Positions 4,514-27,188 of a stretch of 64,000 nucleotides of DNA are shown here, one piece after another. The notes beneath the pieces are model-generated. The model ran no database searches. It saw nothing but the letters and a program-made list of their open reading frames with translations, and was not told the DNA's origin. How positions within the stretch are numbered: position 1 is the stretch's first letter; each line of letters starts with the position of its first letter. The stretch covers positions 275 through 64,274 of the forward strand of contig JAZQFX010000029.1 of the NCBI GenBank assembly GCA_045539695.1. Reading direction: 5' to 3'. A program made the translations under genes and the position numbers. This stretch comes from Acutalibacteraceae bacterium (GTDB taxonomy: Bacteria; Bacillota; Clostridia; Oscillospirales; Acutalibacteraceae).

Positions 4514-4542
4514 TTGCAAAATAATTGTAGAGATGATATAAT
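4514..4542 (+). promoter_or_regulatory. Sigma-70 type promoter of the DUF262 operon
   Basis: TTGCAA (4514-4519), an exact 17-nt spacer, then TATAAT (4537-4542). Confidence 0.55.
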
Positions 4543-4571
4543 TATACTAAAATCTTAGAGGAGTAATGATA

Positions 4572-8581: not shown

Positions 8582-8594
8582 AGGTGGAAAAATT

Positions 8595-9575: not shown

Positions 9576-9598
9576 ACAATACTATTAGGAGTTAGAGT

Positions 9599-10781: not shown

Positions 10782-12800
10782 ATGTTGTTTTATAAGATTG
10801 ACACAACCCTTATTGATGAAGATTCCCTTCCTACTTCCAGAGAGCGTGACAGTTTCAGAACGTTAGCAGCAGAATATAAAGAAAAGAGCGACTCATTCTA
10901 TCATAAAATCAAAGAACAAAGATTTTTCTTTGTTTCAAATACAAATAACGGACACGTCGTTATGGGTGCTATCTCAAATGATGCCAGCACAATCGAAAAA
11001 GATTGTAACAAATATATTAGATTGCTTGGCATCAAGGTAAATAACATCCATATTGAGGAGATCACGCTGCGTTCTATGGATTCTTTGCTCTCAACTGCAA
11101 GTCGAAATGACTTTGTTAACAGTGATGATGAAATCCTTGAACGCTTTGGAATTGATTGCCTTGTTGGTCATAGAAGTTATTCAGAGTATGGAGAATCTAT
11201 GATTGACACAAGCTTAAACAAAGACGAACTGATTAAAAAATCCAATAATCTACTGATGGAAGATACGCTTACCGCAGAAATAAATCGAATCTATGAGGTC
11301 CCGGCTGCTAAGAACTCAAGTGGACACCCTGTTCATTATCTTGTTAGAACAGACAATCGTGATAACAGAAAATCTATTTATAAAACTTTGCTTTCTGCAT
11401 TATATTCAAATAATCGTGTGAAGAGCAAAAGATATTGTTTTGTAGATTATGATGATAGAAGCAATCTGCCAGATGGTGAATACGAAGCTTTGTATCGTAG
11501 CTGTGAAAACAGTGCGATTATTGTAAGGTATTCTACCGAAGAGTCAAGCGGCGGTCAGTTTGCCAAATCCGGAGAGAATGTTATTGCTGCACTTTGCGAA
11601 TTTGCTCTTAGATATAGGAACAAAGTTTTAACGGTATTTTGCTTACCGATTGAAGCAGAAAAAGCACGCTCCGTGCTTCTGAGCAATCTTAACAACACAT
11701 CTTTAATCGAATTGCGTGAGGATGTTGTGAATTCGGAAAGAGCTAACGAATATCTTAAAATAATGGCCAAGAACTACAAAATCAGAACAGACAAAAATCT
11801 TTTTCCTGTATGTAAAGAAGGTCAATTATTTACCGCAACAGAATTAAGAGATATCTTTGATAAATGGTACGACCAAAAACTTCGAAATAACATCTTCCCT
11901 CAATATAAAGAGGCTCAAACTGTAAAAAGCGATATTGTAAAAGCAAAACCATGTGGTAGCGCTTATGATGAACTAAGTGAAATGGTTGGTCTTTCCAAAG
12001 CCAAGGAAACCATTGACCAAGCGCTTAATTTCTACAAAGCACAGAAGCTATTTAAAAATAAAAACATTTCCTTTAATCGCCCTGCTATGCATATGATTTT
12101 TGCAGGCAATCCCGGAACTGCTAAAACAACCGTTGCTCGTCTCTTTGCGCAAATAATGAAAGAGAACGGACTTTTATCTAAAGGCAATTTGTATGAAGTC
12201 GGTCGGGCAGATCTTGTTGGTAAATATGTAGGTCATACTGCACCACTTGTAAAGCAAGCATTTAAGAAAGCGCGCGGAAGCGTGTTGTTTATTGATGAAG
12301 CATATTCACTTGTAGACGACAAGGACGGGCTTTTTGGTGATGAAGCAATAAACACTATTGTTCAAGAAATGGAGAACAATCGTGATGATATGATAGTGAT
12401 TTTTGCCGGCTATCCAAATAAAATGGAACAGTTCCTCAGTAAAAACCCTGGTCTGCGTTCTCGCATCGCTTTCCACATTCCTTTTGAAGACTATTCTTCT
12501 AACGAGCTTTGTGACATCGCAAAGATGATTGCTTCTTCACGCGGTCTTGCATTATCAGATGATGCCGTATGCAAATTGGATAGCATATTTTCTGATGCAA
12601 GAAAGAACAGCGATTTTGGCAACGGCAGATATGCCCGCAATCTTATCGAAAAGGCGCAAATGGCTCAAACAAACCGCCTACTCAAAGGTGACATCAACAG
12701 TATAAATGATGAGATTTTAAGCACAATTACTGCTGATGATATCGAAACACCCAAAATTTGTTGCGAAACTCCTAAAGTTAAAATCGGCTTTGCTTCATAA
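10782..12800 (+). CDS. CbbX/SpoVK/EccA-type AAA+ ATPase with a large N-terminal region of about 400 aa
   Basis: Walker A is FAGNPGTAKTTVARLFA and Walker B is VLFIDEAYSL. Also present are EAINTIVQEMENNRDDMIVIFAGYPNKMEQF and NPGLRSRIAFHIPFEDYS. The N-terminal part (HPVHYLVRTDNRDNRKSIYKTLL...) looks like a degenerate second AAA-like module. Confidence 0.85.
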   Translation: MLFYKIDTTLIDEDSLPTSRERDSFRTLAAEYKEKSDSFYHKIKEQRFFFVSNTNNGHVVMGAISNDASTIEKDCNKYIRLLGIKVNNIHIEEITLRSMDSLLSTASRNDFVNSDDEILERFGIDCLVGHRSYSEYGESMIDTSLNKDELIKKSNNLLMEDTLTAEINRIYEVPAAKNSSGHPVHYLVRTDNRDNRKSIYKTLLSALYSNNRVKSKRYCFVDYDDRSNLPDGEYEALYRSCENSAIIVRYSTEESSGGQFAKSGENVIAALCEFALRYRNKVLTVFCLPIEAEKARSVLLSNLNNTSLIELREDVVNSERANEYLKIMAKNYKIRTDKNLFPVCKEGQLFTATELRDIFDKWYDQKLRNNIFPQYKEAQTVKSDIVKAKPCGSAYDELSEMVGLSKAKETIDQALNFYKAQKLFKNKNISFNRPAMHMIFAGNPGTAKTTVARLFAQIMKENGLLSKGNLYEVGRADLVGKYVGHTAPLVKQAFKKARGSVLFIDEAYSLVDDKDGLFGDEAINTIVQEMENNRDDMIVIFAGYPNKMEQFLSKNPGLRSRIAFHIPFEDYSSNELCDIAKMIASSRGLALSDDAVCKLDSIFSDARKNSDFGNGRYARNLIEKAQMAQTNRLLKGDINSINDEILSTITADDIETPKICCETPKVKIGFAS

Positions 12801-12813
12801 AGGGGCTGACACA

Positions 12814-13635
12814 ATGTATATTACAAAATTACATATTGTAGGTTTCGGAAACATCACTTCCGAAACCTTCTCCCTCAACGAACAACCCTCAATCATTAAA
12901 TCGGATTTTTGCGATGAAATTGTCGCAGCTTTGAAATTAATTTTAGGTTACAGCAACAAAGTATACTATTTAAAAAAATCAAGCATCATAAATGCCGAGT
13001 TCAATGGCGAGTCGAATATTACAGTTACATATTCAGGCAGCAAACTCAAAGCCTACAATGAACAAGGCGAAGATATTACTGAAGATTACTTAAACATCAT
13101 GTCTCACAATTCAGAGGAAGATTCATTAAATGTTTTTCAGCATTTCAAAAAACAAAAATATCCTCATAGGCTTCTAAAGTACAAGGATATGGATAGATAT
13201 TACGGAGAACACGATTTCAGAAACATCACAGATGGATATGGAGTTACAAGAAGTTTTAGAGCTTTTTTAAATGAATACATTAAAACCTTTAATCCTATTA
13301 AAATCAATCAAGATAAAGAATATTTTGTTCATCTGCTACCATCTGGAGAATTTGTTGTCAAATATAAAGACGAGCCTATTACACCTTATCTTAGTGAATC
13401 TGAATCAGTATTGTATCATTATATCTGTTTTTTGTGCCTTGCTGATTTTTGGAGCCGCGCCGAAAGTATTCGTAACATAAACCGGATTAATAAGCCCATT
13501 ATCATATCTGACTTTTTAGAAAGAATCGATAGTTCTATTAATCTTTCCGACATTATGAAACGTACTTTGAATTTAGAAAGACAAACAATAATAATTGTAC
13601 CCAAAAAGTGCAATGACTTGGAGTGTGACACATAA
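12814..13635 (+). CDS. Hypothetical protein (273 aa). The N-terminus resembles an SMC/RecF-type ATPase head but lacks Walker A.
   Basis: The N-terminus MYITKLHIVGFGNITSETFSLNEQPSIIKSDF has the beta-strand pattern of ABC/SMC heads, with no GxxGxGKS motif. The C-terminal PIIISDFLERIDSS is Walker B / D-loop-like. An AAAGGGG RBS precedes the start. Confidence 0.5.
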   Translation: MYITKLHIVGFGNITSETFSLNEQPSIIKSDFCDEIVAALKLILGYSNKVYYLKKSSIINAEFNGESNITVTYSGSKLKAYNEQGEDITEDYLNIMSHNSEEDSLNVFQHFKKQKYPHRLLKYKDMDRYYGEHDFRNITDGYGVTRSFRAFLNEYIKTFNPIKINQDKEYFVHLLPSGEFVVKYKDEPITPYLSESESVLYHYICFLCLADFWSRAESIRNINRINKPIIISDFLERIDSSINLSDIMKRTLNLERQTIIIVPKKCNDLECDT

Positions 13636-13994
13636 TGGATAATAATGAGAAAAAAGAACGTATGATGAATGCCATTAGATTATGGTGTATAGAACAGGGA
13701 TTAAACGAAATCACAGATAATGAAACCTATTATTACTATACAGATATTGCATTCACGAAAGATAATAAGGTAACAGGTTTCATTTTTGAGTTTGATAGAG
13801 ATGATGAGCGACTCATGTTTAGGATGGTGTTTTCAAAAGACATCTGTGATTATGTTTATGTGGTTACAGATGACTCTAAAAAGCGAAAAGAACTATCTGA
13901 AAAAATCATGGATGAATACGGATTACTTTGCTATTCCAATAGTTTTGGGTTGGGATATGTTTATCAAGTTTTAAAGGAACCATCATTATTATAA
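13635..13994 (+). CDS. Hypothetical protein (119 aa)
   Basis: The start codon overlaps the upstream stop (TAATG). No motif was recognised with confidence. Confidence 0.5.
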   Translation: MDNNEKKERMMNAIRLWCIEQGLNEITDNETYYYYTDIAFTKDNKVTGFIFEFDRDDERLMFRMVFSKDICDYVYVVTDDSKKRKELSEKIMDEYGLLCYSNSFGLGYVYQVLKEPSLL

Positions 13995-14027
13995 TCAACT
14001 ATTTTTAACACAAAAAGGATTGATCAG

Positions 14028-14465
14028 ATGAATGAAAATATAAATACCTTTGATTTTTTAAACCCTATCGGTCATATTGAAGTCGGTGATAAACCGATTA
14101 AGTTATCCAACATTTCGGATAACTTACAAACAGGAAATTTAGTCGTTGTTTTTTCAGATAGCAATAAAGATTTCGAGAACCTAGCAAAAAAGTTATGCAA
14201 CCAAAAGAACCTATTGATATTGAACAAAGGAATAAAGAGCTTCTCGTTTTTGAAAAAGAAATCCCAAAAGCTTAATAAGACGGTATTTGTAAAACTTAAT
14301 ACCAAAAAGCTCGACAAATACAAACGAAAAAAACATTTTACAAAAAAAGTTTCACTCAGCCTACACATTAAACATAAACCATATTACTATATAGCAGGTT
14401 GTAAAAATCACTCTACTGACTTTAATATTGGATGGACTGTGATAGGGTTAGAAGAGATAGCATAA
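14028..14465 (+). CDS. Hypothetical Lys-rich protein (145 aa)
   Basis: An AAAGGA RBS is present. The gene lies 33 nt after the previous one. Confidence 0.45.
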   Translation: MNENINTFDFLNPIGHIEVGDKPIKLSNISDNLQTGNLVVVFSDSNKDFENLAKKLCNQKNLLILNKGIKSFSFLKKKSQKLNKTVFVKLNTKKLDKYKRKKHFTKKVSLSLHIKHKPYYYIAGCKNHSTDFNIGWTVIGLEEIA

Positions 14466-15792: not shown

Positions 15793-17289
15793 CTAGTTTA
15801 CAACTTCTCGTAATTTCTCCCACACCTTAACCATTGCATATGTATCAAGTTCGCAATATTTGAGCAGGTTGTGGCGGGTGCGGGCAGCTTCATCGGGTTC
15901 CATATCTTTAATGTGTGGAAATATTGTCATTGCCTCGGTGCCGTTGTGAATATCCTCGAGATTGTGATAATCAAGCTCGTGGTCGTTGGGGAACAGTGCC
16001 GGGAGCACGCTCTTGATTGAAAAGCTACCGCCCATATCTCGCGTGTAATAATGACCTGACTGAAAGGGTTTTAGCAAATCAACAATATTTTCCCTTATAT
16101 TCATCAGGTGGTCGGCAAGGTCGGGGAAACTTTCGGCAAGCTCTTTAAGTCTGCTACATTCAAAGCCCTTGTTATACGCCGTTACACAAACACCCATAGG
16201 TATGTTTTCGCAAAGGCTTTCGGCAATGGGGCGGCGGGGGTCAACGCCCGATTCGGCCAAAAACTCTTTGTGCTTTAGTTCGCCGCCCTCGTGTTCAATA
16301 TAGTGTAGCGAATACTGAAACGGTATTTGCTGATATGGATGGGTGCTGGGAAATTCGGGAATAGTTAACTGCATCGTTTCAAAATCAAGAAAATATAACG
16401 GATACGAAAGGTTGTCAAGGAAATCTTCGATGCCTTTTTTAAATATATATGGCTCGCGAGTTTCGGTGGCGTGAAGCATCTGTATTATCCATTTTTCGTT
16501 TTTGATTTTGGTATCATAAAGCAATTGTTCGTAAGATGTTTTACCTTCATAATAGTATTTAAGAGCGGGTTTAAACTGTATCCTATAAAGGTCAAAAACA
16601 TTTGGCTTTGGCAAATGCTTGGTGCAGTGACCCCAAAACGCACAGTCATATGGATCGCGGCAATGAAGACCTATGTCTTTTTGTGGTTCCTCTTTCATAG
16701 CGTAGATGGCTTCCGCTTTTTTCAATAACGAAGGCACATTCTGGAATTCATCGTTTACTTCCGCAGATATATCAATTATTTGAAAAAATTTGTGTATATC
16801 AATTTCCTCACCACGAACATAGTTACTATCTATACAGATAAGGTATGTTCCGGTGATATTTATACCGCAATGCTCTAAAACATATTTTTGATATGATACA
16901 TCAACGGCATAAATGTGTGATGCGTGGGTAGAGCTTTTAACCTCGTAAATCGCATATCCATCGGCTGTTTTGCGCAGAATATCTACCGCGCAATAAAGAC
17001 CGTTATAGTCAAAAGATGCCTCACATATATTTTCTACTCCGTTAGCAATACACTGCTTTGTCAGTTCTTTCATACGGTTAAGGTCGAGGCTGCCGTCGGG
17101 TTTGTGAGCGGTTACCTCAACATAATCACCGAACAGCCCCATAGCCATATCGCCCACAACATTACCGCCGTCAAAGCGCGCCTGAAGCGCTGCGTCAACG
17201 GGTTTTAGTTCTGGTCTATATTTGTTTAGCCATAAATTTTTTGGACACTGCCATACTTGACAGTATTTTGATTTTGAAAAGTAGAACAT
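15793..17289 (-). CDS. DUF2779 domain protein (PD-(D/E)xK-like N-terminus, exonuclease-like C-terminus)
   Basis: The N-terminus MFYFSKSKYCQVWQCPKNLWLNKY matches the remembered DUF2779 signature (SKS..f..g.QCpK.LWL). The gene is visibly more GC-rich than both flanks. Confidence 0.7.
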   Translation of the reverse strand: MFYFSKSKYCQVWQCPKNLWLNKYRPELKPVDAALQARFDGGNVVGDMAMGLFGDYVEVTAHKPDGSLDLNRMKELTKQCIANGVENICEASFDYNGLYCAVDILRKTADGYAIYEVKSSTHASHIYAVDVSYQKYVLEHCGINITGTYLICIDSNYVRGEEIDIHKFFQIIDISAEVNDEFQNVPSLLKKAEAIYAMKEEPQKDIGLHCRDPYDCAFWGHCTKHLPKPNVFDLYRIQFKPALKYYYEGKTSYEQLLYDTKIKNEKWIIQMLHATETREPYIFKKGIEDFLDNLSYPLYFLDFETMQLTIPEFPSTHPYQQIPFQYSLHYIEHEGGELKHKEFLAESGVDPRRPIAESLCENIPMGVCVTAYNKGFECSRLKELAESFPDLADHLMNIRENIVDLLKPFQSGHYYTRDMGGSFSIKSVLPALFPNDHELDYHNLEDIHNGTEAMTIFPHIKDMEPDEAARTRHNLLKYCELDTYAMVKVWEKLREVVN

Positions 17290-17318
17290 ATCTTTACCTC
17301 TAAGCGTACATTTTTTAC

Positions 17319-17329
17319 ATTATACCACA
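17319..17329 (-). promoter_or_regulatory. Extended -10 promoter element (TGTGGTATAAT)
   Basis: The minus strand has TGnTATAAT about 30 nt upstream of the DUF2779 start, followed by an AGAGGTAAAGA RBS. Confidence 0.45.
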
Positions 17330-17499
17330 TAAAAGCATAAAATCACACCTTTTTATAAAACTCTCTCAAATTTATCAGGATTTGTTTTAATATAATACGG
17401 ATAGTCGACCGCAAATAAAAGCATCGCACTCAACGTTCCAATTTTGGTACATAGAGTGTGGTATTTTATATATAGTGAATTTTTTGAAGGGGGCTTTAT

Positions 17500-17892
17500 A
17501 TGAGTATTTACAAAGGTATATTTTGGTATGTTCCGGGTGAACACAAGCTTATCGCAGTTAAAGTCGCTTGTGATGAAAATGGCAATGCGTTAGAAAATAC
17601 AAACTATTCCTCTAAATCGGGAGAGAATTTTAATCACAAAATCGAATGGAATAAGCTTCATAAGGACGTAACCAAAAAGAATCCTTACAACTATTACCCA
17701 CGTGGAAGGGTTGAAATTAAAAATAGCAAGGTAAAAATCTTTTTAAATTCCACTTTAAATGAGTCTGAATTACTTAAATTAATCTATTCGGAATTTTCTT
17801 TGTCTAACTATATTGAGCTTAAAGCAATTTCCGATAATTCAAAACATTACAATTATTTAATGGAATATGGAAAAGGTGATAAAAATGAATGA
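17500..17892 (+). CDS. Hypothetical protein (130 aa)
   Basis: A GAAGGGGG RBS is present. The conserved-looking stretch YNYYPRGRVEI was not assigned to any family. Confidence 0.55.
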   Translation: MSIYKGIFWYVPGEHKLIAVKVACDENGNALENTNYSSKSGENFNHKIEWNKLHKDVTKKNPYNYYPRGRVEIKNSKVKIFLNSTLNESELLKLIYSEFSLSNYIELKAISDNSKHYNYLMEYGKGDKNE

Positions 17893-18319
17893 CAGTGCAT
17901 TTAAAACAAAAAGTTTATTTACAAATCTAAAATACTGTATTCAAAGAATTAGACGTGGTTATTGCGATGCGGATCTTTGGGATATGGATAGTTGGTTCAT
18001 GGCTGTCATTGTCCCTATGCTTCGACAATTCGACAAAACCAGATTTGGCTGGCCAACACCTATTCAAGAGCATTATATAGAAGAACATATGGCAAAATAT
18101 GGTGTCGACCGTGACGAACTCCTTTGTAACTACGGCGAAGAACTTGAAGAAGTTTGCAACAGAAAATGGAGCGAGATCCTTAACAAATTAGCAGATAATT
18201 TTGAAATGGTTAATGAACTTGAGTTTAGTGACAAAAGAGGCGACCAAGAGAAACAAGAAGAACTCAAGAACAAGTGCTTTGAAACTTTTTCTAAATGGTT
18301 CTTTTATCTTTGGGATTGA
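17885..18319 (+). CDS. Hypothetical protein (144 aa)
   Basis: The start overlaps the upstream stop (ATGAATGA) and is preceded by an AAAGGTGA RBS. Confidence 0.5.
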   Translation: MNDSAFKTKSLFTNLKYCIQRIRRGYCDADLWDMDSWFMAVIVPMLRQFDKTRFGWPTPIQEHYIEEHMAKYGVDRDELLCNYGEELEEVCNRKWSEILNKLADNFEMVNELEFSDKRGDQEKQEELKNKCFETFSKWFFYLWD

Positions 18320-18331
18320 GGGGTATATTTT

Positions 18332-19030
18332 ATGATTTACGCTATGAGCGACCTACATGGTTGTTACGACAAGTATATTAAAATGCTTGAAAAGATAAGG
18401 TTTAACGAAAATGACATCCTTTATATATTGGGCGATATTGTTGACAGGGGTCCTGATGGAATAAAAATTTGGCAAGACATTATAAATCGAAAAAATGTTA
18501 TTGCGCTTCGTGGTAACCATGATTTTTTAGCATATCACTTACTTAAAATTTTAAGCAAAAGTTCCTTGTTTGATGTTTTAGGTTCAGGACAAGACGATGG
18601 ATTTGTAGAAAAATATCGCAGTTGGATTTTTGATGGCGGCTTATCTACTGAAGAAGGCTTTAATGAGTTAGATGAATCTGAAAAAAAGAAACTCTTACTG
18701 CATATGAGCTATATGCCGATTTACGAAGAAATTGAAGTAAACGGTAATAAATTCTTTTTATCTCACACCGTTCCTAGTAAAGAACGGATGCAGAATTTTA
18801 ATAAGCTTTTATGGCAGGAATTTATTATTGGTGAACCGGAATATGAAAAAGAATACTTCCCTGATAAGTTTATCGTAACCGGGCATACACCGACAGGATT
18901 TATTGATCCAAAATGCAAAGGTAAAATCTGGCATGGCAATAATCATATTGCCATTGAATGTGGTGCTGCATTCGGCAATCCGCTTGGCTGCATTTGCCTT
19001 GATACTCTTGAAGAATTTTATGTGGAATAA
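18332..19030 (+). CDS. PPP-family metallophosphoesterase (lambda-phosphatase/PrpE-like Ser/Thr phosphatase or Ap4A hydrolase)
   Basis: Motifs present are MSDLHGCYD, LGDIVDRGPDG, LRGNHD and GHTP. Confidence 0.8.
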   Translation: MIYAMSDLHGCYDKYIKMLEKIRFNENDILYILGDIVDRGPDGIKIWQDIINRKNVIALRGNHDFLAYHLLKILSKSSLFDVLGSGQDDGFVEKYRSWIFDGGLSTEEGFNELDESEKKKLLLHMSYMPIYEEIEVNGNKFFLSHTVPSKERMQNFNKLLWQEFIIGEPEYEKEYFPDKFIVTGHTPTGFIDPKCKGKIWHGNNHIAIECGAAFGNPLGCICLDTLEEFYVE

Positions 19031-19047
19031 TTGAAAAGAGGGTTTTT

Positions 19048-20181
19048 ATGAGATTCAAAATAACATCAGCAGGAAATAATTCGACATTTGGGGATGTGTT
19101 TTTTAGTGTGCCTACAAAAGAAGAAATGCAAAAGGCAGAAAAAAGAGTTGCAGAAATTTGTCATGAAAAAGCATTAAAGATATATAAAGATAACCCAAAC
19201 GTTTTTGAGAACGAAATATTTACCAGAATCGAAAAAGAAATCGAAAAAATGAGTGCCACCGAAACGGTATATCATTTCCTAGTTTTGAAAGAAATCGCAG
19301 AAGTATCCAGAGAAGCGGGATTCCCTATTATGACCGAAGGCAACCTTTCCGGTTCTGTTATTTCTTACTTACTTGGTATTACCGAATACGACCCTATGAG
19401 TTTCAACCTGGATTATACCCCAATTGAACTTCTTTGGGGCACAGATGAAACTGTTTTAACACCAGATTTTTCTACAGGCATCGCTCCGCAAATCCGTCCG
19501 TTAATACATAGCAGATTGGATTCAAAATATGGATTTGTTGACTGTAATAAAGATATTTACAAGCAACTCTCGCTGACAGATACTACCATATGCGAACGAC
19601 TGGGGCAACTCTTGAAAGTCACCGATACAAAACCATCCTTTAAAGATTATAACGATAAGATTTATATTCAAGTTATCAAAAATATTGCAGATGATTATAT
19701 TTGCGAATTTGAAGAACTAAAAAAAGAAGGCTATATGTTTGATGAAGAACTGCCCCACGTTTTATCTTTCGCAAAAGATTTAAAGCTGATGAAACATTGT
19801 AATTTTAAACAATTACTTCGTTTATATGCATATCGACACGGATCTTTCAACACTAAGAAAAGTCTAAGCACTTTATCAAATGATTTCTTTACTACTCGTG
19901 ATGAATTCTTCAATGCATTAATTTATCATAAAGTCCCCGATGCCGTTGCTTTGGACATTGTAAAAAAAGGCGTATGGTCAACCCAAGACAAACGCAAAAA
20001 ATATACAGAAATTCTCAGCTCTTATAACACACCCGAATGTGTATCTGAATACTTTTCCAATGTCCGTCATCTTTGGGAAACACATGCTTGTATTAGCAGA
20101 TTGATGCTTATGTGTACTATTGCCTGGTACCAAATTAATTACCCCACAGAGTTTATGACACTTGAAAATGGAGAATTATAA
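19048..20181 (+). CDS. Truncated, catalytically degenerate PolC-like protein (mini C-family polymerase paralog)
   Basis: GNLSGSVISYLLGITEYDP corresponds to the PolC motif RGSVGSSxVAxLxGITxVNPL. TPDFSTG replaces the catalytic PDIDLNF. The C-terminal HACISRLMLMCTIAWYQINYPTEF corresponds to FPKAH...YPxEF. Confidence 0.6.
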   Translation: MRFKITSAGNNSTFGDVFFSVPTKEEMQKAEKRVAEICHEKALKIYKDNPNVFENEIFTRIEKEIEKMSATETVYHFLVLKEIAEVSREAGFPIMTEGNLSGSVISYLLGITEYDPMSFNLDYTPIELLWGTDETVLTPDFSTGIAPQIRPLIHSRLDSKYGFVDCNKDIYKQLSLTDTTICERLGQLLKVTDTKPSFKDYNDKIYIQVIKNIADDYICEFEELKKEGYMFDEELPHVLSFAKDLKLMKHCNFKQLLRLYAYRHGSFNTKKSLSTLSNDFFTTRDEFFNALIYHKVPDAVALDIVKKGVWSTQDKRKKYTEILSSYNTPECVSEYFSNVRHLWETHACISRLMLMCTIAWYQINYPTEFMTLENGEL

Positions 20182-20182
20182 T

Positions 20183-21199
20183 ATGGATATTTTAAGATTT
20201 ATAAATTCAAAGGACATACGAGAATACCTAAAAACAATAAACTATGAATTCAATTCCCTCGAAGCAGCGTGGCTCATCTATCAGTGCAGGAATGCAACCA
20301 TTGAGGAAAAGCACGCGGCTTGGCGAGAACTCATTAATACTATGCCAGATTGTGAAATAAAACAAGCAGCTATTTGCCGGCATAGCCTTCATAGTTTTTT
20401 GAACGAGTTTTTAAAAACAGAAAACAAAATTTTAAATGAGTTTTTTAACAACACAGAAAATTCCATATATTCCTACGAGTGGTGGGAAGATAATATGTGG
20501 CACCCAAGAAATCCCTATTGTTCGAATTATGAAGATATTCTTGCTTCATATGACAGCCTTGAGAAATGCTTCAGTAAAAATGGCGTTTATTCTACCGAAT
20601 ATGAACGTCCCGAAAAATATAGAATAATCAAACAAGAGCTAAATAACGGAACCATCATAACAGTTATTTTTTCAAAAGATAATAAGGTTATTAATTATAG
20701 TTTTGGTTTTTCCCCGAGCAACAATGAGTATTTGTATGATGAGAGTGTACTTTTTACATTTGATAACCTATATTTCAACTTCCCTACTCCTTTCAAAAAA
20801 GGAGATATCTTATGTATACAATATGAACAATCCAATATCCCAAGGCATTTACATCGTGGCCCGTTTGTGCTGACAGAACTATGCACGGAAAATACTATGT
20901 TGCAAAAAATTCTTCGACCATTTGAAATGGTTGCGTCTGGAATTTTCCAAAATGAAAATGGGCTAATATATGAAGCTCCGACCACTAATTATATGGATCT
21001 TGAATATTACAGAGGCGAACTTGACGGCAAAAAGCAAATTTTGAAAGCCTTTAGAGATTTTTATATGAATAAACTTAACGTCATTGACCTCACAAATACA
21101 TACCACCTTACTTTAACCCAAGAAAACACCAAGGATATTGAATACTTCGTTAAGAACAATAAAAAAAGCGACAAGGAGGCTTGTTGTGAACATCCTTAA
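20183..21199 (+). CDS. Unknown-family protein, paralog A (338 aa)
   Basis: The start MDILRFINSKDIREYL has a GGAGA RBS. It shares FNSLEAAWLIYQCRNATIEEKHAAWRELI, FPTPFKKGDILC and YMDLEYYRGE with paralog B. Confidence 0.6.
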   Translation: MDILRFINSKDIREYLKTINYEFNSLEAAWLIYQCRNATIEEKHAAWRELINTMPDCEIKQAAICRHSLHSFLNEFLKTENKILNEFFNNTENSIYSYEWWEDNMWHPRNPYCSNYEDILASYDSLEKCFSKNGVYSTEYERPEKYRIIKQELNNGTIITVIFSKDNKVINYSFGFSPSNNEYLYDESVLFTFDNLYFNFPTPFKKGDILCIQYEQSNIPRHLHRGPFVLTELCTENTMLQKILRPFEMVASGIFQNENGLIYEAPTTNYMDLEYYRGELDGKKQILKAFRDFYMNKLNVIDLTNTYHLTLTQENTKDIEYFVKNNKKSDKEACCEHP

Positions 21200-22166
21200 T
21201 TTTATAAATTCAAAAGACATACGAGAACATATGAAAGCCATAAACTATGAGTTTAATTCCCTTGAGGCAGCTTGGCTCATCTATCAGTGCAGGAATGCAA
21301 CCATTGAGGAAAAGCACGCGGCTTGGCGAGAACTTATAAGAACAATGCCAGACTGTAAAATACCAGAGCGTATTAACGCTAACCCACACGATAGCTTACA
21401 CAATTATCTGCGGAAATACATTGATTACGAAGAAAACGTTTTTGATGAGTATTTTACCTCTACTGAAAATTGGATTTATACTGTCGAATGGTTAGAGCAA
21501 GACACTTGGTTTTCAAGTGACAAACTATATAAGACCTTTGAAAAAGCCCAACAAGAGTTACTTGAGGAGTTTAAAGATTGGGAAAGAAAATATATTTATA
21601 GAATCACTAAACAAAAGCTCGAGAGCAAGCAATACATAACCGTATATTTCGATAAGAATAACGAGCCGTATGATTACGGTATATGTGAATACCCCGAGAA
21701 ACTTACAGAAATTTTGTACGGAGTGTTTGACGGTCTTTGGTTTGACTTTCCGACACCGTTTAAAAAGGGAGATATTCTTTGCCAATATGATTTATATGGT
21801 AAAGAAACATCTGGATTTTGCCGTGGACCTTTTGTTATGAAAGGCATTACACCCGATGAAGTTCGAGATTGGACTAGAAAAGACGGAGACACAAGCGATA
21901 TGAACGCTTGGGGATATTTTCAAGGCCCTGACGGTACAATTTACTACGAAGTAATGCATAACTATATGGATCTTGAATACTACCGAGGCGAGTTTACAGG
22001 AAAAAAGCGAATTTTAAAGGCACTTGGTAACTTCCTTAAAGGCGAAATAGATGTTGAACTTATGTGCAGAGCGTATCATTATCTTATGTGCGATGAATAT
22101 ACTAAAGATTCTATTCCTCAAGGTTTTACAAATGAAGGCTTAAAGCTGGCAGGTGTAATAGAATGA
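21186..22166 (+). CDS. Unknown-family protein, paralog B (326 aa, GTG start)
   Basis: An AAGGAGG precedes the GTG at 21186 (VNILNFINSKDIREHM). It overlaps paralog A by 14 nt. Confidence 0.6.
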   Translation: MNILNFINSKDIREHMKAINYEFNSLEAAWLIYQCRNATIEEKHAAWRELIRTMPDCKIPERINANPHDSLHNYLRKYIDYEENVFDEYFTSTENWIYTVEWLEQDTWFSSDKLYKTFEKAQQELLEEFKDWERKYIYRITKQKLESKQYITVYFDKNNEPYDYGICEYPEKLTEILYGVFDGLWFDFPTPFKKGDILCQYDLYGKETSGFCRGPFVMKGITPDEVRDWTRKDGDTSDMNAWGYFQGPDGTIYYEVMHNYMDLEYYRGEFTGKKRILKALGNFLKGEIDVELMCRAYHYLMCDEYTKDSIPQGFTNEGLKLAGVIE

Positions 22167-22564
22167 ACATATTTATAGGGGGCTCTAAAAACATAGGTAG
22201 ACTGTCACCTACTGTAAAAAAGATGCTATGTTCCATAATCAGAAGTAATCATCATATTTTAATCGGTGACTGTTACGGTATCGATTTGGCCGTGCAACAC
22301 TTTTTGAATGAACAAAAATATGATAGCGTAACCGTTTATACTGCCTGCAATTGTGCAAGACATAACGTGGGCGGTTGGAAAGAAATAAATATAGCCACCG
22401 ATAATGTTGGATTTACTGCTCACAGAGAAAAAGATGATGCGATGGCAAACGCTTGTGATTTTGGAATTATGATTTGGAACGGTAGTAGCAAAGGAACCTT
22501 TGCCAATATTAAAGACTTAAGAACTTTAGGAAAAAAGGTTGTGGTTATAAATGAAGATACCTGA
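22163..22564 (+). CDS. Small SLOG/DprA-like Rossmann-fold protein (133 aa)
   Basis: IFIGGSKNI...ILIGDCYGIDLAVQHFL...VTVY...IMIWNGSSKGT follows the GSR / GDAxGxD / SxGT pattern of DprA and SLOG-type nucleotide-binding domains. The start overlaps the upstream stop as ATGA. Confidence 0.45.
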   Translation: MNIFIGGSKNIGRLSPTVKKMLCSIIRSNHHILIGDCYGIDLAVQHFLNEQKYDSVTVYTACNCARHNVGGWKEINIATDNVGFTAHREKDDAMANACDFGIMIWNGSSKGTFANIKDLRTLGKKVVVINEDT

Positions 22565-23612
22565 TTTGATAAACGAACTTTTTGAATCAAGAGAGATGTC
22601 TGAATACCTTATTGAACATTCCGCAGAACTCTCAAAATACAACATTTTGCGAATGGTTTGTAGCGCACCTATTGATATACGACGTAAAGCTGAAATATTA
22701 TTAGAACTTTCAAAGGATGAGAATATCGAAAAAGAAATAGCAGAAAAATTAAATTGCGGAAGCATAAATCATTCTGAGAAAAAAGAAATAATAGAACGAA
22801 TAAAAGAAGATTCTTTTCGCTTTAATTATGAATGCGTTTCAAAAGCAATAGAACACTTACATTGTAAATCTGGCGATGTATTTACTATGCAGAATATCTG
22901 GCACGATGAAGACGGTACTGTCACTCGCAAAAAGGGTGATTTTTATCTGTCATCCTCCTTTGAAAACATATTGACCTTAATCAAAGATTATATGGAGTTC
23001 GAAGGATGGTCTTTTATCGATAAAAATGCATATTCTTGGTTTGAAATAACAAAGTGGTCTCTCAATAAAAACGGTGACTACGATGCAATTATTGTATATG
23101 AGTTTGTAAATAACAAACTTATGTATTATTTCTATGTAGAAGACAAAAAATCAAACTTCAATATATTTGAGCCTAATTGCGACCTGAATTTAACAACTCC
23201 GTTTACAACAGGTAATATTTTGACTGTTGATTGCTGTCCTTATAAACCCGAAAGAAATATACTCATTCTTGAAAATATCACTAACGACGATTGCTGTTCC
23301 TTACAAGGATTGTATTATGATCCTACTATACAACTCTTTAACATTGGCGCCGTTAAACATGCCTCTATGTATCGCGGATTGTACCGTCCATCCGTTTCAC
23401 CATTATACCGAATCTCTGAGAATGTTAATGAACTGTCCAATGAAGAAGCAATCTTCAAGGATATTAAATCATTTTTAAGCGGAGATTCCCAAAAAGGACA
23501 AGAAATGTGGTCATGGATTTACAACACCAAAACAAACAAAGAAAAAAGAAAGTTAAAGAATTCGGATGGTGTTACAGCTGAAGAAATCAGACGATATATG
23601 GAGGAAAATTAA
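22551..23612 (+). CDS. Unknown-family protein, divergent paralog C (353 aa)
   Basis: It has the same length and layout as A and B: an N-terminal helical segment, then LNLTTPFTTGNILTV matching FNFPTPFKKGDILC. It overlaps the upstream gene by 14 nt. Confidence 0.55.
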   Translation: MKIPDLINELFESREMSEYLIEHSAELSKYNILRMVCSAPIDIRRKAEILLELSKDENIEKEIAEKLNCGSINHSEKKEIIERIKEDSFRFNYECVSKAIEHLHCKSGDVFTMQNIWHDEDGTVTRKKGDFYLSSSFENILTLIKDYMEFEGWSFIDKNAYSWFEITKWSLNKNGDYDAIIVYEFVNNKLMYYFYVEDKKSNFNIFEPNCDLNLTTPFTTGNILTVDCCPYKPERNILILENITNDDCCSLQGLYYDPTIQLFNIGAVKHASMYRGLYRPSVSPLYRISENVNELSNEEAIFKDIKSFLSGDSQKGQEMWSWIYNTKTNKEKRKLKNSDGVTAEEIRRYMEEN

Positions 23613-23613
23613 G

Positions 23614-23907
23614 ATGTATTTTATCACTTGTTTTAATCAAATTGAAAACGACTTCTCTGATGATATAAGAACTTTCGGTTTTTTTAAAGATATAAAAACT
23701 TGCCGAGAAGCTCTTAATGAAAATTGGTGTGATATGCATGAATGTTGTTACACCTTTGCCGTAATTGAACGAATAGAACCAGGAATCCATCCTAAATCCG
23801 AAAAGATCACTTGGTTCAAGTGGGATAAGAACAAATCTGGATTTTTTGAGGTTGATAACCCCATAGGTGCAGGTAATTTAAGCAATTATGCTATTGCCAT
23901 TGGATAA
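23614..23907 (+). CDS. Hypothetical protein (97 aa)
   Basis: A GGAGGA RBS is present. The start lies 2 nt after the upstream stop. Confidence 0.5.
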   Translation: MYFITCFNQIENDFSDDIRTFGFFKDIKTCREALNENWCDMHECCYTFAVIERIEPGIHPKSEKITWFKWDKNKSGFFEVDNPIGAGNLSNYAIAIG

Positions 23908-23944
23908 GCCTATAAATCATAAAACAGAATGAGGTAAAAGACAT

Positions 23945-26900
23945 ATGAAAAAAATTAAAACTCTATTTTACGAAATCGATGAAATTTTAAATAACAACAA
24001 CGGTGAAGGCAAACTGATAGCACTCGGTTCTCGTCCTGGTATGGGCAAAACATCATTACTTTTAGATATAATGTTAAATACTGCATTGTTTAACGATGTG
24101 GATATTTTATTATTTACCTTGGAAATGACGAAATCGCAAATCATTGAACGGTTATTAAAAAAGCAAGATTTAACACCTGAAGAGTTGAATAAAATACATA
24201 TAGACGAAATCGAAAGTGGTATGCCGAGCAGTGACTATATCGAAAAGGTAATATCATACTATAATAAACAAAAAGTTATTTTTATCGATTATATTAACTT
24301 AGTAGAAGATTACACGCGTGAGAATTCAGCAAATATATTATTAAGGCTTAAAACCATCTGCAAAGAAAAAGGTATACATATTATTTATACCTGTCAGTTA
24401 CCAAAAAGTTTAGAAACACGTGCTAACAAACGTCCGGTTTTAGAGGACATAGACGAAATCACCCGTACCACAGTCGATGCGATATTTGCGCTTTACAGAC
24501 CTGCATATTATACAGGTAATAACAACACCACTGCAGAACTGCGAGCATTAAAACATCCTTCAGGCGAGTTATTGGAAATTCCTCTAGTTTTCGATAATAA
24601 AACCCTCAGCCTATACTATGATATAAAATTCGGACTTGATGATGCTCCCATAAAACGTGTTGAACTTTCAGTACACACAAAAATGTCCGATGATGTTTCA
24701 ACTATAAGTGTCCAAGAGGCTTTCGATTTTGCCGACAGCTGCAACCACAAGGCTATTGCCTTTACCAATTATAATAATGTTCAGGATTTCCCCGAAATTC
24801 GAAACATTTCAGGAAAATACCATAATCTCAAGGTTATATATGGTGCCAGAATACTTTACGAAAACGATAACGGCGGTGCATGGGCTACAACGTTACTAAT
24901 TAAAAATCAGCAGGGCGTCAAAAACTTATACAAACTCATCTCTTCTATGACAAATATGGGGAATACAAAAATCGCTCATATAAATTTCATCGAGCAATAT
25001 AGAGAAAATTTGCTTTGCAGTGCTTGTGGTGATTTAAGCGAATTGTATTGCGCCTTTCAATCTGAATCACCTATGGACGAAATCAAGGCAATAGCACAAA
25101 GATATGATTACTTTGAAATCTTCCCAACCAATGATATAAAAACTCGCTCTATTTATCAGAAAATAGTTAAATTGGGCAAGGAGTTGAATATACCTGTTGC
25201 AGCCACGGGAGACTGTCATTATTATTCTAAAGGCGATGAAATCTACCGCCGAGTTGTAAAAGAATTTAAAGGCGGAGCTGATGACAATAATCAGCAATAT
25301 CTTCGTAATACTGAAGATATGCTTAAGGCATTTGCCTACTTAGGTGAAGAAGATGCTTATGATGTAGTTATTAAAAATCCCAATTTAATTGCAGATATGA
25401 TTGAGCAGGTAGAACCGCTATCTACTGATATTCCAGAATTTGAAATTCCAGGAGCAGATGATTTCATTACAAAAGAAGCAACTTCAAAAGCTGTTTTTAT
25501 ATATGGGGAACATCTGTCTCCCACCGTTGAAGAAAGATTAAACAGTGAGCTAAAAATAATAAAAAACAACGGTTTTTCTTCGCTTTATATGTTAGCTCAT
25601 CTTCTTGCAAAATATGCCCACAAAAATGGACAACCAACAAGTTCTCGCGGATCAGTAGGTTCTTCGTTTGTGGCCTTTCTGTTAGGTATAACAAATGTTA
25701 ATCCGTTACCGCCACACTATTATTGTAGCGAGTGCTCTTTTACGGACATAGATCCTAATATTTGTTCAGGTTATGATTTAGAAGAAAAGAACTGTCCGTT
25801 ATGCGGAAAACCCCTTGTCCGCGATGGTCATAATATTCCGTTTGAATCATTTATGGGATTTTATGGAAGTAAACTACCTGATATTGATTTGAATTTCCCT
25901 TCTTCTTTTAGGAACAATGTACTGGAATACCTTTGTGAACTGTTTGGACAAGAACGGCTTTTAATAGCCGGTACAATTCGTACATTAACTCCCACAGATG
26001 CTGAAATGTATGTGAATATGTATCAAGAAAAGAATGACCAAGAGTTTGAGCAGAAATTGGTCGCTTCAATTATAAGAAATATTGATGGAGTTAAGCGACA
26101 AGAGTCCATACATCCTGGCGGAGTATTTATTCTGCCCGAAGGGAAAGGGGCTTGCGATTATACACCAACCAAAACTCTTAATAATCATTCCCCAATAAAA
26201 AAGAAAACACATTTAGAATTCAATAGTTTACAAGACAATATTTACAAAGCTGACATCCTTGGATTCATTCCGTTAGAAATTTTAGCACGCCTTGAAAAAT
26301 ACACGGGTGTTTCCTCAAAAGACATTGATATTACTGATCCGAAAATTTATGAACTTTTTAAGGATTCACGCGTAATCGGGATTGTCTCCGATGAACCGGC
26401 CACTTCTGGATTGCCTGAATTTGACACCGATTTTGTCCGTAATATGATTAAACAAACTCATCCTAAAAACTTTGGAGATTTGGTAAAAATCAGTGCTTTA
26501 TGTCATGGCACAAATACCTGGTTCTATAATGCTGAGGAATTGCTTAAAAACAATGTTTGTAGTTTAAATGATTTACCCGCCTCAAGAGAAGATATATATA
26601 ACCATCTTGTATCTTGCGATATTGAAAGGCCACTAGCATTTAAAATAATGCAGGCTGTTCGAAAAGGTGAATTTATGCGTATAGGGTTAAATAAAGATCC
26701 AGAAGTTATTAAGGCTTTCGCTACTCATAATATTCCTGATTGGTATATGGATTCACTTTGCAAAATTAGATATATGTTTCCTAAAGCACATTCAGTTGAA
26801 TATGTTAAAACGGCATTAACTCTCGCTTGGTACAAAATTTATTTTCCAACAGAATTTTATGCTGTAACTTTCAATGTACGCTTCCCTGACAGAAATTATA

Positions 26901-27112
26901 GTTTCCTTTGTGGAGGATTAGAAGTTATAAATCAATACTTAGAAGATGTTAAATTGCCTTTTGGTTCTGAAAAAGAAGATTCGATTGATCGAGAATTAAA
27001 TTTGTTTAAGGAATGTGCGGAAAGAGGCATAGTTTTTGAATGTAATACCAACAAAGGAAATTGCTCCGAACCATATTCCGTCTCTAACGGCAAAATACTC
27101 TTAAACTATTAA
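23945..27112 (+). CDS. Fusion of a DnaB-C-terminal/RecA-fold ATPase domain with a PolC-type C-family DNA polymerase. The polymerase part lacks the exonuclease, OB and N-terminal domains.
   Basis: Residues 1 to about 230 carry GSRPGMGKTS, FTLEM, VIFIDYINLV and ALYRPAYY. From about residue 238 the PolC-type motifs appear: VELSVHTKMSDD (degenerate PHP), LLIKNQQGVKNLYKLIS, RGSVGSSFVAFLLGITNVNPLPPHYYCSEC...CPLCGKPL, IPFESFMGFYGSKLPDIDLNF, HPGG, KADILG and FPKAHSVEYV...YFPTEFYA. Confidence 0.8.
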   Translation: MKKIKTLFYEIDEILNNNNGEGKLIALGSRPGMGKTSLLLDIMLNTALFNDVDILLFTLEMTKSQIIERLLKKQDLTPEELNKIHIDEIESGMPSSDYIEKVISYYNKQKVIFIDYINLVEDYTRENSANILLRLKTICKEKGIHIIYTCQLPKSLETRANKRPVLEDIDEITRTTVDAIFALYRPAYYTGNNNTTAELRALKHPSGELLEIPLVFDNKTLSLYYDIKFGLDDAPIKRVELSVHTKMSDDVSTISVQEAFDFADSCNHKAIAFTNYNNVQDFPEIRNISGKYHNLKVIYGARILYENDNGGAWATTLLIKNQQGVKNLYKLISSMTNMGNTKIAHINFIEQYRENLLCSACGDLSELYCAFQSESPMDEIKAIAQRYDYFEIFPTNDIKTRSIYQKIVKLGKELNIPVAATGDCHYYSKGDEIYRRVVKEFKGGADDNNQQYLRNTEDMLKAFAYLGEEDAYDVVIKNPNLIADMIEQVEPLSTDIPEFEIPGADDFITKEATSKAVFIYGEHLSPTVEERLNSELKIIKNNGFSSLYMLAHLLAKYAHKNGQPTSSRGSVGSSFVAFLLGITNVNPLPPHYYCSECSFTDIDPNICSGYDLEEKNCPLCGKPLVRDGHNIPFESFMGFYGSKLPDIDLNFPSSFRNNVLEYLCELFGQERLLIAGTIRTLTPTDAEMYVNMYQEKNDQEFEQKLVASIIRNIDGVKRQESIHPGGVFILPEGKGACDYTPTKTLNNHSPIKKKTHLEFNSLQDNIYKADILGFIPLEILARLEKYTGVSSKDIDITDPKIYELFKDSRVIGIVSDEPATSGLPEFDTDFVRNMIKQTHPKNFGDLVKISALCHGTNTWFYNAEELLKNNVCSLNDLPASREDIYNHLVSCDIERPLAFKIMQAVRKGEFMRIGLNKDPEVIKAFATHNIPDWYMDSLCKIRYMFPKAHSVEYVKTALTLAWYKIYFPTEFYAVTFNVRFPDRNYSFLCGGLEVINQYLEDVKLPFGSEKEDSIDRELNLFKECAERGIVFECNTNKGNCSEPYSVSNGKILLNY

Positions 27113-27154: not shown

Positions 27155-27188
27155 AAGGACAGTAGCGTTACAAAGCGTTACTGTCCTT
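27155..27188. terminator. Hairpin between convergent genes
   Basis: A 10-bp stem, AAGGACAGTA / TACTGTCCTT. A T-run follows on the minus strand only. Confidence 0.5.

Follow-up and report, generated by a model that had tools for sequence, protein, structure and literature searches.

What might a polymerase of the replicative type do when it is fused to a helicase and encoded outside the polC locus? This question is raised by a ten-gene operon at positions 17500-27112 of a 64,000-nucleotide (nt) stretch of contig JAZQFX010000029.1 (assembly GCA_045539695.1, Acutalibacteraceae bacterium), which is referred to as the window. The last gene of the operon, g10, encodes a fusion of the helicase motor of DnaB (DnaB_C) with a PolC core. 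The reading that we favour, tentatively and with more doubt than confidence, is that the operon and the adjoining DUF2779 gene constitute a mobile, conflict-associated system of gut Oscillospirales islands, which would heal DNA ends and resynthesise DNA by strand displacement. The enzymes are of known kinds, whereas the fusion, the set of partners and two unrecognised families (those of g1 and g6) are new. The features on which the argument relies are listed below (aa, amino acids; ORF, open reading frame); loci with related genes carry L numbers and protein clusters P numbers.

17500-17892, plus strand: g1, 130 aa, member of an unnamed family (170 homologous clusters, no Pfam model)
17867-18319, plus strand: g2, about 144-150 aa, no known family; probable start at 17885
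18332-19030, plus strand: g3, PPP-family metallophosphoesterase of the lambda-phosphatase/ApaH/Pnkp type (PF00149, 1.4e-17; phrog_246, 5e-40)
19048-20181, plus strand: g4, 377 aa, PolC-derived and predicted to be catalytically dead (PF07733, 6.9e-11 over residues 35-163)
20162-21199, plus strand: g5, member of a family of about 330 aa, 47% identical to g6; probable start at 20183
21186-22166, plus strand: g6, member of the same family; the ORF opens at 21138
22163-22564, plus strand: g7, 133-aa SLOG/YAcAr-like Rossmann protein (phrog_289, 5.8e-7)
22551-23612, plus strand: g8, 353 aa, distant paralog of g5 and g6 (hhalign 90%, E 1.4e-6, 268 columns)
23566-23907, plus strand: g9, 97-113 aa, no known family; a counterpart of 79% identity in L165 and a weakly similar one in L004
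23945-27112, plus strand: g10, 1055-aa fusion (Pfam, NCBIfam and PDB alignments)
15793-17289, minus strand: DUF2779 protein, 498 aa (PF11074, 8.2e-48), divergent from g1 and immediately upstream of it
17290-17499, no strand: intergenic region between the divergent g1 and DUF2779 genes, with promoter-like sequences and the ribosome-binding site of g1
27155-27188, no strand: 34-nt inverted repeat, read in the sequence 3' of g10

The helicase-polymerase fusion

Residues 1-220 of g10 correspond to the C-terminal RecA-fold helicase motor of DnaB (PF03796, 5.3e-31), and the part from residue 236 to about 1031 corresponds to a PolC core of PHP domain, palm, zinc finger, fingers and thumb. Pfam and NCBIfam models place the domains in the order DnaB_C, PHP, PolIII-alpha and finger, in agreement with the RecA/DnaB-like::PolC-like fusion described in the initial annotation of the window. 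In the alignment with the solved PolC 9qpc, residues 236-303 match 360-426 and residues 313-1031 match 640-1386, with about 40% identity across the PHP domain, palm, zinc finger, fingers and thumb. The fusion lacks the DnaQ exonuclease insert, the query passing from residue 303 to 313 where 9qpc spans 427-639, and the Pfam search gave no PF00929 match in g10, unlike for true PolC matches. The N-terminal and OB domains of PolC are replaced by the helicase motor. At the other end, the alignment stops at PolC residue 1386 of 1474, leaving out the last approximately 90 PolC residues with the helix-hairpin-helix and the clamp-binding tail; a QLxLF-type clamp-binding motif was not found in the remaining 24 C-terminal residues of g10, and half of the fusion family terminates about 70 residues before the end of g10. 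Accordingly, g10 resembles PolC in a core that aligns from PHP to thumb with PDIDLNF and KxDILG intact, and it differs from PolC in falling below the curated NCBIfam cut-offs (NF001688, 760 versus 873 bits; TIGR01405, 727 versus 1043 bits), in lacking the DnaQ insert and the C-terminal tail, in carrying a DnaB motor at the N-terminus, and in being encoded in an island and not at the polC locus.

The helicase motifs are kept in 20 aligned fusions, namely RPGMGKT (Walker A), FSLE (H1a glutamate), (V/I)FIDY (Walker B), RxLExRxDKRP (H4 loop) and DA(I/V)FALYR (arginine finger region), and this conservation suggests that the domain is a working DnaB-type motor that has no N-terminal collar. The protein begins at a position matching approximately position 177 of the 435-position DnaB model TIGR00665, and no match to the DnaB N-terminal helical domain, which serves in primase binding and as the collar, was obtained with Pfam or NCBIfam. 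Minimal helicase-coupled replisomes are represented by the T7 gp4 primase-helicase with gp5 and by Twinkle with Pol gamma. The likeness to these lies in a hexameric RecA-fold 5'-3' motor of the DnaB/gp4 superfamily that is physically coupled to a replication enzyme, whereas in g10 a C-family polymerase is itself covalently fused to the motor, a primase is lacking and the context is not one of viral replication.

In its polymerase part, g10 retains the three palm aspartates (PDIDLNF, KADILG) and a Cys4 zinc finger, and its PHP site is degenerate, with ELSVHT for ELHVHT, the first PHP histidine being Ser in its clade. The catalytic residues are lost in a polymerase-dead subclade comprising 6 of the 20 aligned fusions (P0013, P0015 in L002, P0016, P0018, P0019 in L168, and P0032). 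All three catalytic positions are altered in this subclade, with PDID changed to PDIS or PRID and KxDILG to KxN(I/L)LG; the exception is P0019, which reads PDFDICV and keeps both aspartates of PDID. Walker A is retained throughout the subclade, and the polymerase-dead L002 still has the DUF2779/HD and phosphatase partners.

The architecture is common to about 40 protein clusters that are 35-71% identical and come from NCBI, ENA, JGI and Logan assemblies, and its occurrence in these independent assemblies means that the fusion is not an assembly artefact. A further group of about 720-810 aa consists of the PolC core alone, without DnaB_C. By tblastn, the fusion was absent from 50,697 phage records and 72,556 plasmid records (PLSDB). 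The only database names of its relatives are 'PHP domain-containing protein' and 'DNA polymerase-3 subunit alpha (Gram-positive type)', and a helicase-fused, exonuclease-less PolC is not mentioned in the bacterial polymerase surveys PMC3919608 and PMC12926913. The plasmid pCY186 was considered as a possible carrier of the fusion and was rejected, because it has separate full-length polC and dnaB genes in a plasmid replisome. This 186-kb plasmid of Butyrivibrio proteoclasticus (NC_014390.1, L173) has its own near-complete replisome, which is unrelated to the fusion and unusual for a plasmid (dnaX, a DnaA/Hda-like gene, a 1490-aa PolC, dnaB, a DnaC-like ATPase and Rep).

The missing exonuclease, together with g4, bears on whether the operon could be a mutasome. 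The predicted inactivity of g4 rests on the segments it has kept: BLASTP aligned its residues 26-117 with residues 500-588 of g10 and its residues 252-372 with 842-974, so that an N-terminal palm segment and the latter segment are all that is left, with neither the zinc finger nor the PDIDLNF segment nor the fingers retained. It thus answers to the dead mini PolC-like protein proposed at first. Among fusion loci it is present in only two, the window and L165, and a 403-aa analogue is found in L192, which has no fusion.

The accepted roles of C-family polymerases are those of chromosomal replicase (PolC, DnaE1/3) and of subunit in DnaE2 mutasomes. It was suggested in the initial annotation that the operon formally recalls ImuA-ImuB-DnaE2 cassettes, and a corresponding explanation would be that an exonuclease-less, error-prone PolC, a RecA-fold partner and an inactive paralog carry out damage-induced mutagenic synthesis. 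The absence of the proofreading domain, the degenerate PHP site and the presence of g4 are in line with this, as are the reports that PolC-type bacteria are without ImuA-ImuB-DnaE2 (PMC12926913) and that plasmid-borne C-family polymerases are mostly of the error-prone DnaE2 type (PMC3919608). However, the polymerase is of the PolC clade and lies outside that of DnaE2, the DnaE2 model NF004225 giving g10 93 bits compared with 760 for the PolC model, and the RecA-fold domain, as a complete helicase motor of the DnaB type, is neither ImuA nor RecA. ImuB is defined as an inactive Y-family polymerase with a RecA-NT motif and an ImuB-C domain (PMC12926913), whereas the dead paralog g4 is a C-family fragment of restricted occurrence, and none of the ten proteins has a Y-family match in Pfam or NCBIfam. 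The partners are also different, being phosphatases, nucleases and a ligase. As for SOS control, no LexA/Cheo box was found near the operon: a Cheo-box search gave none near 17290-17500 and 13 matches in the window compared with 16.3 expected by chance, for a motif that may not be the LexA motif of this lineage. The likeness to ImuA-ImuB-DnaE2 was accordingly not borne out, and we consider the mutasome explanation very improbable.

Gene order, partners and related loci

The ten plus-strand ORFs in 17500-27112 are all the substantial ORFs in that range, and they overlap or are at most 37 nt apart, which agrees with the co-directional arrangement described at first; from this layout we infer that g1-g10 may be read as one transcript. 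A strong Shine-Dalgarno sequence (GAAGGGGG) stands 6 nt 5' of the g1 ATG at 17500, and a putative promoter (TTTACA-18-TAAAAT) is located at 17314-17343 in the g1/DUF2779 intergenic region. The hairpin that had been read at 27155-27188 is present between the convergent g10 (plus strand) and a transglutaminase-like gene (minus strand), and it is possibly a bidirectional terminator; it does not appear on the list of a simple terminator scan because a T tract is missing.

The gene order of the window is reproduced in L165, an independent metagenome contig, and the operon arrangement is therefore not due to chance. L165 contains YAcAr, a g1/g2 remnant, phosphatase, mini-PolC, one g6-type gene, g7, g8, g9 and the fusion, with the order kept for nine of the ten genes, g1 and g2 being represented only by the deletion remnant. 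The identities to the window are 97% for g4, 95% for g6, 92% for g7, 79% for g9, 72% for g3, 70% for g10, 63% for DUF2779 and 61% for g8, and this strongly mosaic pattern indicates recombination between modules. The expectation of a conserved, polymerase-centred cluster is thus supported by the order in L165 as well as by the architecture of the fusion clusters. The remnant itself is a 54-aa ORF at 5238-5402 of L165 that consists of the first approximately 26 residues of g1 and the last approximately 31 of g2, and an in-frame deletion has therefore joined the two genes.

Such a deletion, together with the PolC domains missing from the fusion and the degraded polymerase g4, might be taken to indicate that the operon is what remains of the replication module of a phage or plasmid, now decaying and without a function. 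However, all ORFs of the operon are intact and lie close together, the order of nine of the ten is kept in L165, and the catalytic and ATPase motifs do not vary among family members of 35-71% identity from independent samples. This explanation is largely refuted by the conservation, and we regard it as barely credible.

To place the operon among its relatives, fusion-homolog contigs were compared by tblastn, which yielded about a dozen informative loci, mostly short metagenome contigs. The conserved core is made up of the fusion, the phosphatase, g1, members of the g5/g6 family and DUF2779, whereas g4, g7, g8 and g9 are accessory. Conservation of the gene set described initially is therefore partial, as it holds for the first four members of this core and not for the accessory genes, and DUF2779 had been overlooked. 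Only g1 and/or the phosphatase is directly 5' of the fusion in L001 and L002, and L004, from an Acutalibacteraceae metagenome-assembled genome and the one relative obtained by a single-sequence scan of genome contigs, has g2, phosphatase, a weak g9 and the fusion. In L003, L166 and L167, where the fusion is 42% identical to that of the window and the phosphatase up to 89%, the order is YAcAr, g1, phosphatase, g6-type gene, second phosphatase, DnaA/DnaC-like AAA+, PDDEXK_4 nuclease, DUF1810 and fusion. The fusion of L168 is without g-type partners. Profile scans of viral and metagenome contigs with the fusion alignment were dominated by ordinary DnaB and PolC genes and gave no further fusion locus, and tblastn of all partner proteins against those 160 scan loci gave no extra co-occurrence.

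DUF2779 is the most consistently linked partner of the operon. It lies divergently upstream of the fusion or of a 780-aa PolC core in 7 locus types, and it is 63-75% identical beside fusion or PolC-core genes in L001, L002, L003, L165, L166 and L175; in L175/L176, the polymerase beside it is the 780-aa core without DnaB_C. Its N-terminal half is a Cas4-like PD-(D/E)xK nuclease with a Cys cluster (PADLOC Cas4, 1.7e-6) and its C-terminal half an RNase-H-fold 3'-5' exonuclease, a two-domain interpretation that is taken from PMC13621843 and PMC3985635; the conserved motifs are D103/E116-x-K118, QxxxY, Cys, D302-x-E304 and D482. DUF2779 is usually followed by a 398-aa HD protein, which matches the PADLOC dGTPase model in L165 (5e-45), whereas the HD gene is missing from the window. 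That the DUF2779 exonuclease might be the excised exonuclease of PolC was also considered and was rejected, since BLASTP found no similarity to true PolC.

The phosphatase g3 has the DxH, GDxxDRG and GNHD motifs intact and is the PPP-type metallophosphatase that had been recognised at first. It matches the ApaH, PrpA and Pnkp models below their cut-offs, Pnkp being the weakest (5.4e-4, 18 bits). With the exception of L168, all locus types that have a phosphatase encode it in one operon with the fusion or with g6-family genes and upstream of them, in most cases directly adjacent; its association with the fusion persists from fusions of 91% identity to those of about 35%.

The family of about 330 aa that comprises g5, g6 and g8 gave 545 matches to g6 in a word-indexed search and 2,340 representative clusters at 50% identity in an exhaustive profile search (E <= 1e-3), and no Pfam model matches it. 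The three genes had been described as tandem paralogs, which holds well for g5 and g6, also linked by DNA repeats D1 and D3, and only distantly for g8: g8 shows 20% identity and a single-sequence hhalign probability of 1.6%, and a three-sequence g8 profile, aligned with the g6-family profile, raised the probability to 90%. Relatives of g8 are found in L192 and L193. In every context examined, a g3-type phosphatase of about 227 aa is immediately 5' of the g6-type gene or in the same operon, and the pair occurs without any polymerase in L169 (phosphatase, g6::cREC) and L171. Many members have a C-terminal cyclic-phosphate-processing receiver (cREC) domain, and other fusions are to DnaB_C (P0489, P0503) and to a DnaA/IstB-like AAA+ (P0385). 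The AlphaFold2 (AF2) model of g6 is confident, with a predicted local distance difference test score (pLDDT) of 92.6, and it had no Foldseek match in PDB or BFVD at E <= 0.001, the best listed TM-score being about 0.2.

The g1 model (AF2, pLDDT 83) likewise had no Foldseek match in PDB at E <= 0.001 (best listed TM-score about 0.35), and profile searches of PDB sequences with the g6 and g1 families were negative. The g1 protein is 57-64% identical in L001, L003, L166 and L167 and has homologs in L169 and L174. Among the smaller genes, g2 is 92% identical in L004 and 29% in the viral contig L186, with a C-terminal remnant in L165 and a match to phrog_11543 (2e-4), and g9 has no family match in Pfam, PADLOC, PHROGs or NCBIfam. 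The proposal that g7 is a small SLOG-like Rossmann protein received modest support, from its PHROGs match and from hhalign against the YAcAr proteins of L165, L003 and L166 (probability 69%, E 4.6e-5), and there was no direct match to g7 in Pfam or PDB. The g1 family also extends to viral contigs: L180-L189 (IMG/VR, most of 90-207 kb) have g1-like genes in up to three copies within about 10 kb, and in L180 (103 kb) and L181 (10.8 kb) a g1-like gene adjoins a homolog of the 672-aa AAA+ protein that is encoded upstream in the window.

The ligase gene RtcB joins operon-type genes in four arrangements. In L178 and L179 (fusion 35-37% identical), the order is phosphatase, fusion and, directly after it, RtcB; in L171/L172, it is SbcCD, AAA_13, phosphatase, g6, a 254-aa gene and RtcB; in L190/L192, it is NADAR, phosphatase, WYL-WCX, RtcB, DUF2779, GNAT, g8-like, the 403-aa mini-PolC and a 702-aa AAA+; and in L194, a 985-aa PolC-like protein with the exonuclease kept is followed by RtcB and then by g6::DnaA-type AAA+. 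In L192 (IMG/VR), NADAR is at 3983-4516 and, in the region 6897-9987, WYL-WCX is directly 5' of RtcB-DUF2779; Mrr and a serine recombinase are also present. The layout of L192 suggests a tie between sensing linked to ADP-ribose or to end damage and this gene network. These shuffled arrangements point to a recurring gene network, of which the window operon is one elaborate instance.

The genetic contexts also bear on whether the operon replicates the element in which it resides. In such a replicon, a g6-family organiser and a DnaC-like loader would act with the fusion as the replicase that copies the excised element. In favour of this, the joining of helicase and polymerase recalls the simplest form of a leading-strand replisome, members of the g6 family are fused elsewhere to DnaB_C and DnaA/IstB-like AAA+, L003 and L166 have a DnaA/DnaC-like gene, and the loci lie in islands with recombinases. 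In L174 (IMG/VR), the end of a PolC-like gene, a YpsA-type SLOG gene, a g1-like gene, a phosphatase and two g6-type genes adjoin a DUF2800-SSB-PolA replication module (SSB, single-stranded DNA-binding protein), which is followed by serine recombinases. On the other hand, no iteron-type origin was found by the operon, and no initiator, primase or SSB was found with the helicase-polymerase in 1-28 kb using Pfam, PHROGs and NCBIfam. The nearby mobility genes, moreover, belong to unrelated backbones, comprising a tyrosine integrase in the window and part of one in L002, ParM-like, NikA and relaxase genes in L166, and large serine recombinases in L171, L174 and L192, whereas L001 shows no mobility gene within 10 kb. 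These differences indicate that the cluster behaves as cargo exchanged between element backbones. Polymerase-dead members occur in the same context, the phosphatase-g6 pair is found without a polymerase, the fusion is absent from PLSDB and the phage collection, and the operon had no megablast match in either the phage or the plasmid collection. The idea that this is the replication core of a self-replicating element therefore did not hold up, and we judge it improbable.

A comparison can also be made with the self-synthesising or self-replicating elements SCCmec Cch/CCPol-MP, pipolins and casposons, which are likewise integrative islands with their own DNA polymerase and helicase. However, their polymerases are of the A or B family, have primase activity and are backbone genes, whereas the cluster described here is cargo shared among unrelated backbones and can be polymerase-dead.

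A possible end-healing and resynthesis scheme

The favoured reading of an end-healing and strand-displacement resynthesis system can be laid out as six steps. Damage would first produce nicks or breaks whose ends are blocked (3'-phosphate or 2',3'-cyclic phosphate, and 5'-OH). The phosphatase g3 would then heal the 3' end to a 3'-OH; in related loci, cREC and RtcB would process or seal the same type of end. Third, DUF2779 would trim or resect by means of its Cas4-like nuclease and 3'-5' exonuclease, and it could proofread in trans for the exonuclease-less polymerase. The DnaB-type motor of g10 would next assemble on the displaced 5' strand, perhaps aided by the g5/g6/g8 family, a helper role that we propose because members of this family are fused elsewhere to DnaB_C or to DnaA/IstB-like loader ATPases. 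The tethered PolC core would extend the healed 3'-OH with strand displacement and without a clamp or primase, and g4 and g7 might be DNA-binding or nucleotide-binding accessory subunits. The scheme fits geometrically, since a DnaB-type motor running 5'-3' along the displaced strand and a polymerase extending a nick travel the same way. RtcB is also able to join or cap DNA 3'-phosphate ends, and the phosphatase domain of Pnkp is lambda-phosphatase-like. In RNA-repair systems, enzymes of the cREC and calcineurin-like types are predicted to heal ends (PMC7824862, PMC9503650).

The recurrent partners (phosphoesterase, cREC, RtcB, nuclease/exonuclease, helicase, polymerase, NADAR and WYL) lead us to favour the repair of breaks over attack. 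In a stronger form, which we hold to be doubtful, the fusion would be a self-contained mini-replisome independent of clamp and primase, and would constitute, with the phosphatase, the Cas4/DEDD nuclease and the g5/g6/g8 adaptors, a new mobile class that resynthesises DNA from damaged ends in conflicts between genomes.

Several points weigh against end healing and resynthesis. The polymerase-dead subclade indicates that DNA synthesis is dispensable in part of the fusion family, which weighs against an essential replicase and, as far as the motifs tell, leaves room for a DNA-end-binding or scaffold role. Since the ApaH and Ser/Thr-phosphatase models outscore Pnkp, g3 could act on nucleotides or on proteins. 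RtcB, other ligase genes and kinase genes are absent from the window, most of the neighbouring genes are of the offensive defence type (GmrSD, McrBC and a dGTPase-like HD protein), and the roles given to the g1 and g6 families are guesses, because neither family has a recognisable fold.

Known end-healing systems, namely RtcB-RtcA, Pnkp-Hen1 and LigD Pol/PE/Lig, are similar in combining enzymes of the kinds found here, including a binuclear metallophosphoesterase with RtcB (in related loci), cREC, a polymerase and a nuclease, with WYL nearby. They differ in that the window has no ligase or kinase and in that its polymerase is of the C family and joined to a helicase, and is not of the archaeo-eukaryotic primase or Pol-beta fold. 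The cluster is not described in PADLOC-DB, in PHROGs or in the literature reached by full-text searches (DUF2779, PolC-like, polymerase defence systems and RtcB/WYL).

If the stronger form is true, a polymerase of the replicative type would have a novel function beyond the replication of chromosomes. A covalent helicase-polymerase would be a compact strand-displacement engine of mechanistic and possibly biotechnological interest. The fusions of the family of about 330 aa to DnaB_C, DnaA/IstB-like ATPases and cREC provide a concrete handle on its function, and the cluster ties the widespread DUF2779, which is quasi-essential in JCVI-syn3.0, to a polymerase partner.

The surrounding island and the defence alternative

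The operon lies in a low-GC stretch (0.30-0.36), and the GC content is 0.39-0.45 from about 28.5 kb, where ordinary metabolic genes start. The other features of this stretch that concern the argument are as follows.

374-1378, minus strand: tyrosine integrase, 334 aa, in the low-GC island
3713-4348, minus strand: DUF3800 gene, a separate element of the island
4301-4347, minus strand: DUF3800-XI RNA motif (Rfam RF02975, 41.7 bits), over the 5' end of the DUF3800 gene, a known pairing
8571-9575, plus strand: WYL-domain regulator (PF13280, 3.2e-9; PADLOC WYL, 3.7e-25)
10782-14465, plus strand: neighbour module of a 672-aa AAA+ protein (AAA and AAA_lid_6, weak IetA similarity) and three small ORFs

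Neither a prophage nor a plasmid, the region is an island that has an integrase and is rich in conflict genes. No phage structural, lysis, conjugation or replication-initiation gene was found in 1-28 kb using Pfam, PHROGs and NCBIfam, which, along with the absence of the fusion from phage and plasmid records, agrees with the earlier view that no prophage is recognisable. That view had also included the absence of any phage or plasmid context and of a recombinase, which is correct within the operon and does not extend to the window, given the integrase and the conflict genes of the island. Direct repeats of attachment (att) type flanking the island, the right edge of which is at about 28.2-28.6 kb, were not found in the window, and the left end may lie beyond it.

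The main rival to end healing and resynthesis, which we consider rather unlikely, is defence against phages or plasmids. The fusion would sense or act on replication intermediates or DNA ends of the invader, with DUF2779 as the nuclease; the dGTPase-like HD protein would deplete nucleotides in related loci, and g5, g6 and g8 would be subunits for specificity or sensing. Its support comes largely from the neighbourhood, since the island has DUF3800, two GmrSD genes, WYL and an IetA-like AAA protein, and related loci have McrBC, SLFN-type helicase/SbcCD/AAA_13, and UvrD with an endonuclease. In addition, the HD neighbour matches PADLOC dGTPase, YAcAr matches ShosA (2.4e-7), the Cas4-like DUF2779 is a fitting partner, the polymerase-dead subclade fits a sensing or scaffold role, and tandem divergent paralogs with mosaic identities are typical of conflict genes. 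In contrast, none of the ten proteins has a convincing match in PADLOC-DB v2 (mad8 at 1.8e-6, owing to the generic RecA fold of g10; PDC-S10 at 0.003 for g3; none for the other eight), the enzymes that recur as partners have restorative functions (RtcB ligase, phosphatases, cREC and NADAR), the HD gene is missing from the window, and no abortive-infection effector is evident.

The module at 10782-14465 is syntenic in L001 (65%), L169 (49%) and L192 (45%), and its AAA+ protein is 40-44% identical in L180 and L181. Possibly, the module and the operon are parts of one gene network. WYL genes are found again in L169, L175 and L192, and the WYL protein is a candidate controller of the island by association only. 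It stands at the end of a separate defence module of the same island (4566-9575), in which two tandem genes of the GmrSD type (type IV restriction) precede it. The island also encodes a BspA-type leucine-rich repeat protein.

In the 374-2250 region, a 0.8-kb stretch after the integrase contains repeated motifs of 29-36 nt with the core AGTCATAAATCAT.TCAAAA, at positions 1492, 1643, 1667, 1957, 1978 and 2183. From their sequence and position, these motifs may be binding sites for a recombinase or regulator. Outside the island, ARAGORN called a tRNA-Leu(TAG) at 47150-47224 on the minus strand; it is below the Rfam gathering threshold and lies inside a plus-strand ORF of 1017 aa (46947-50000), and the call is probably a false positive.

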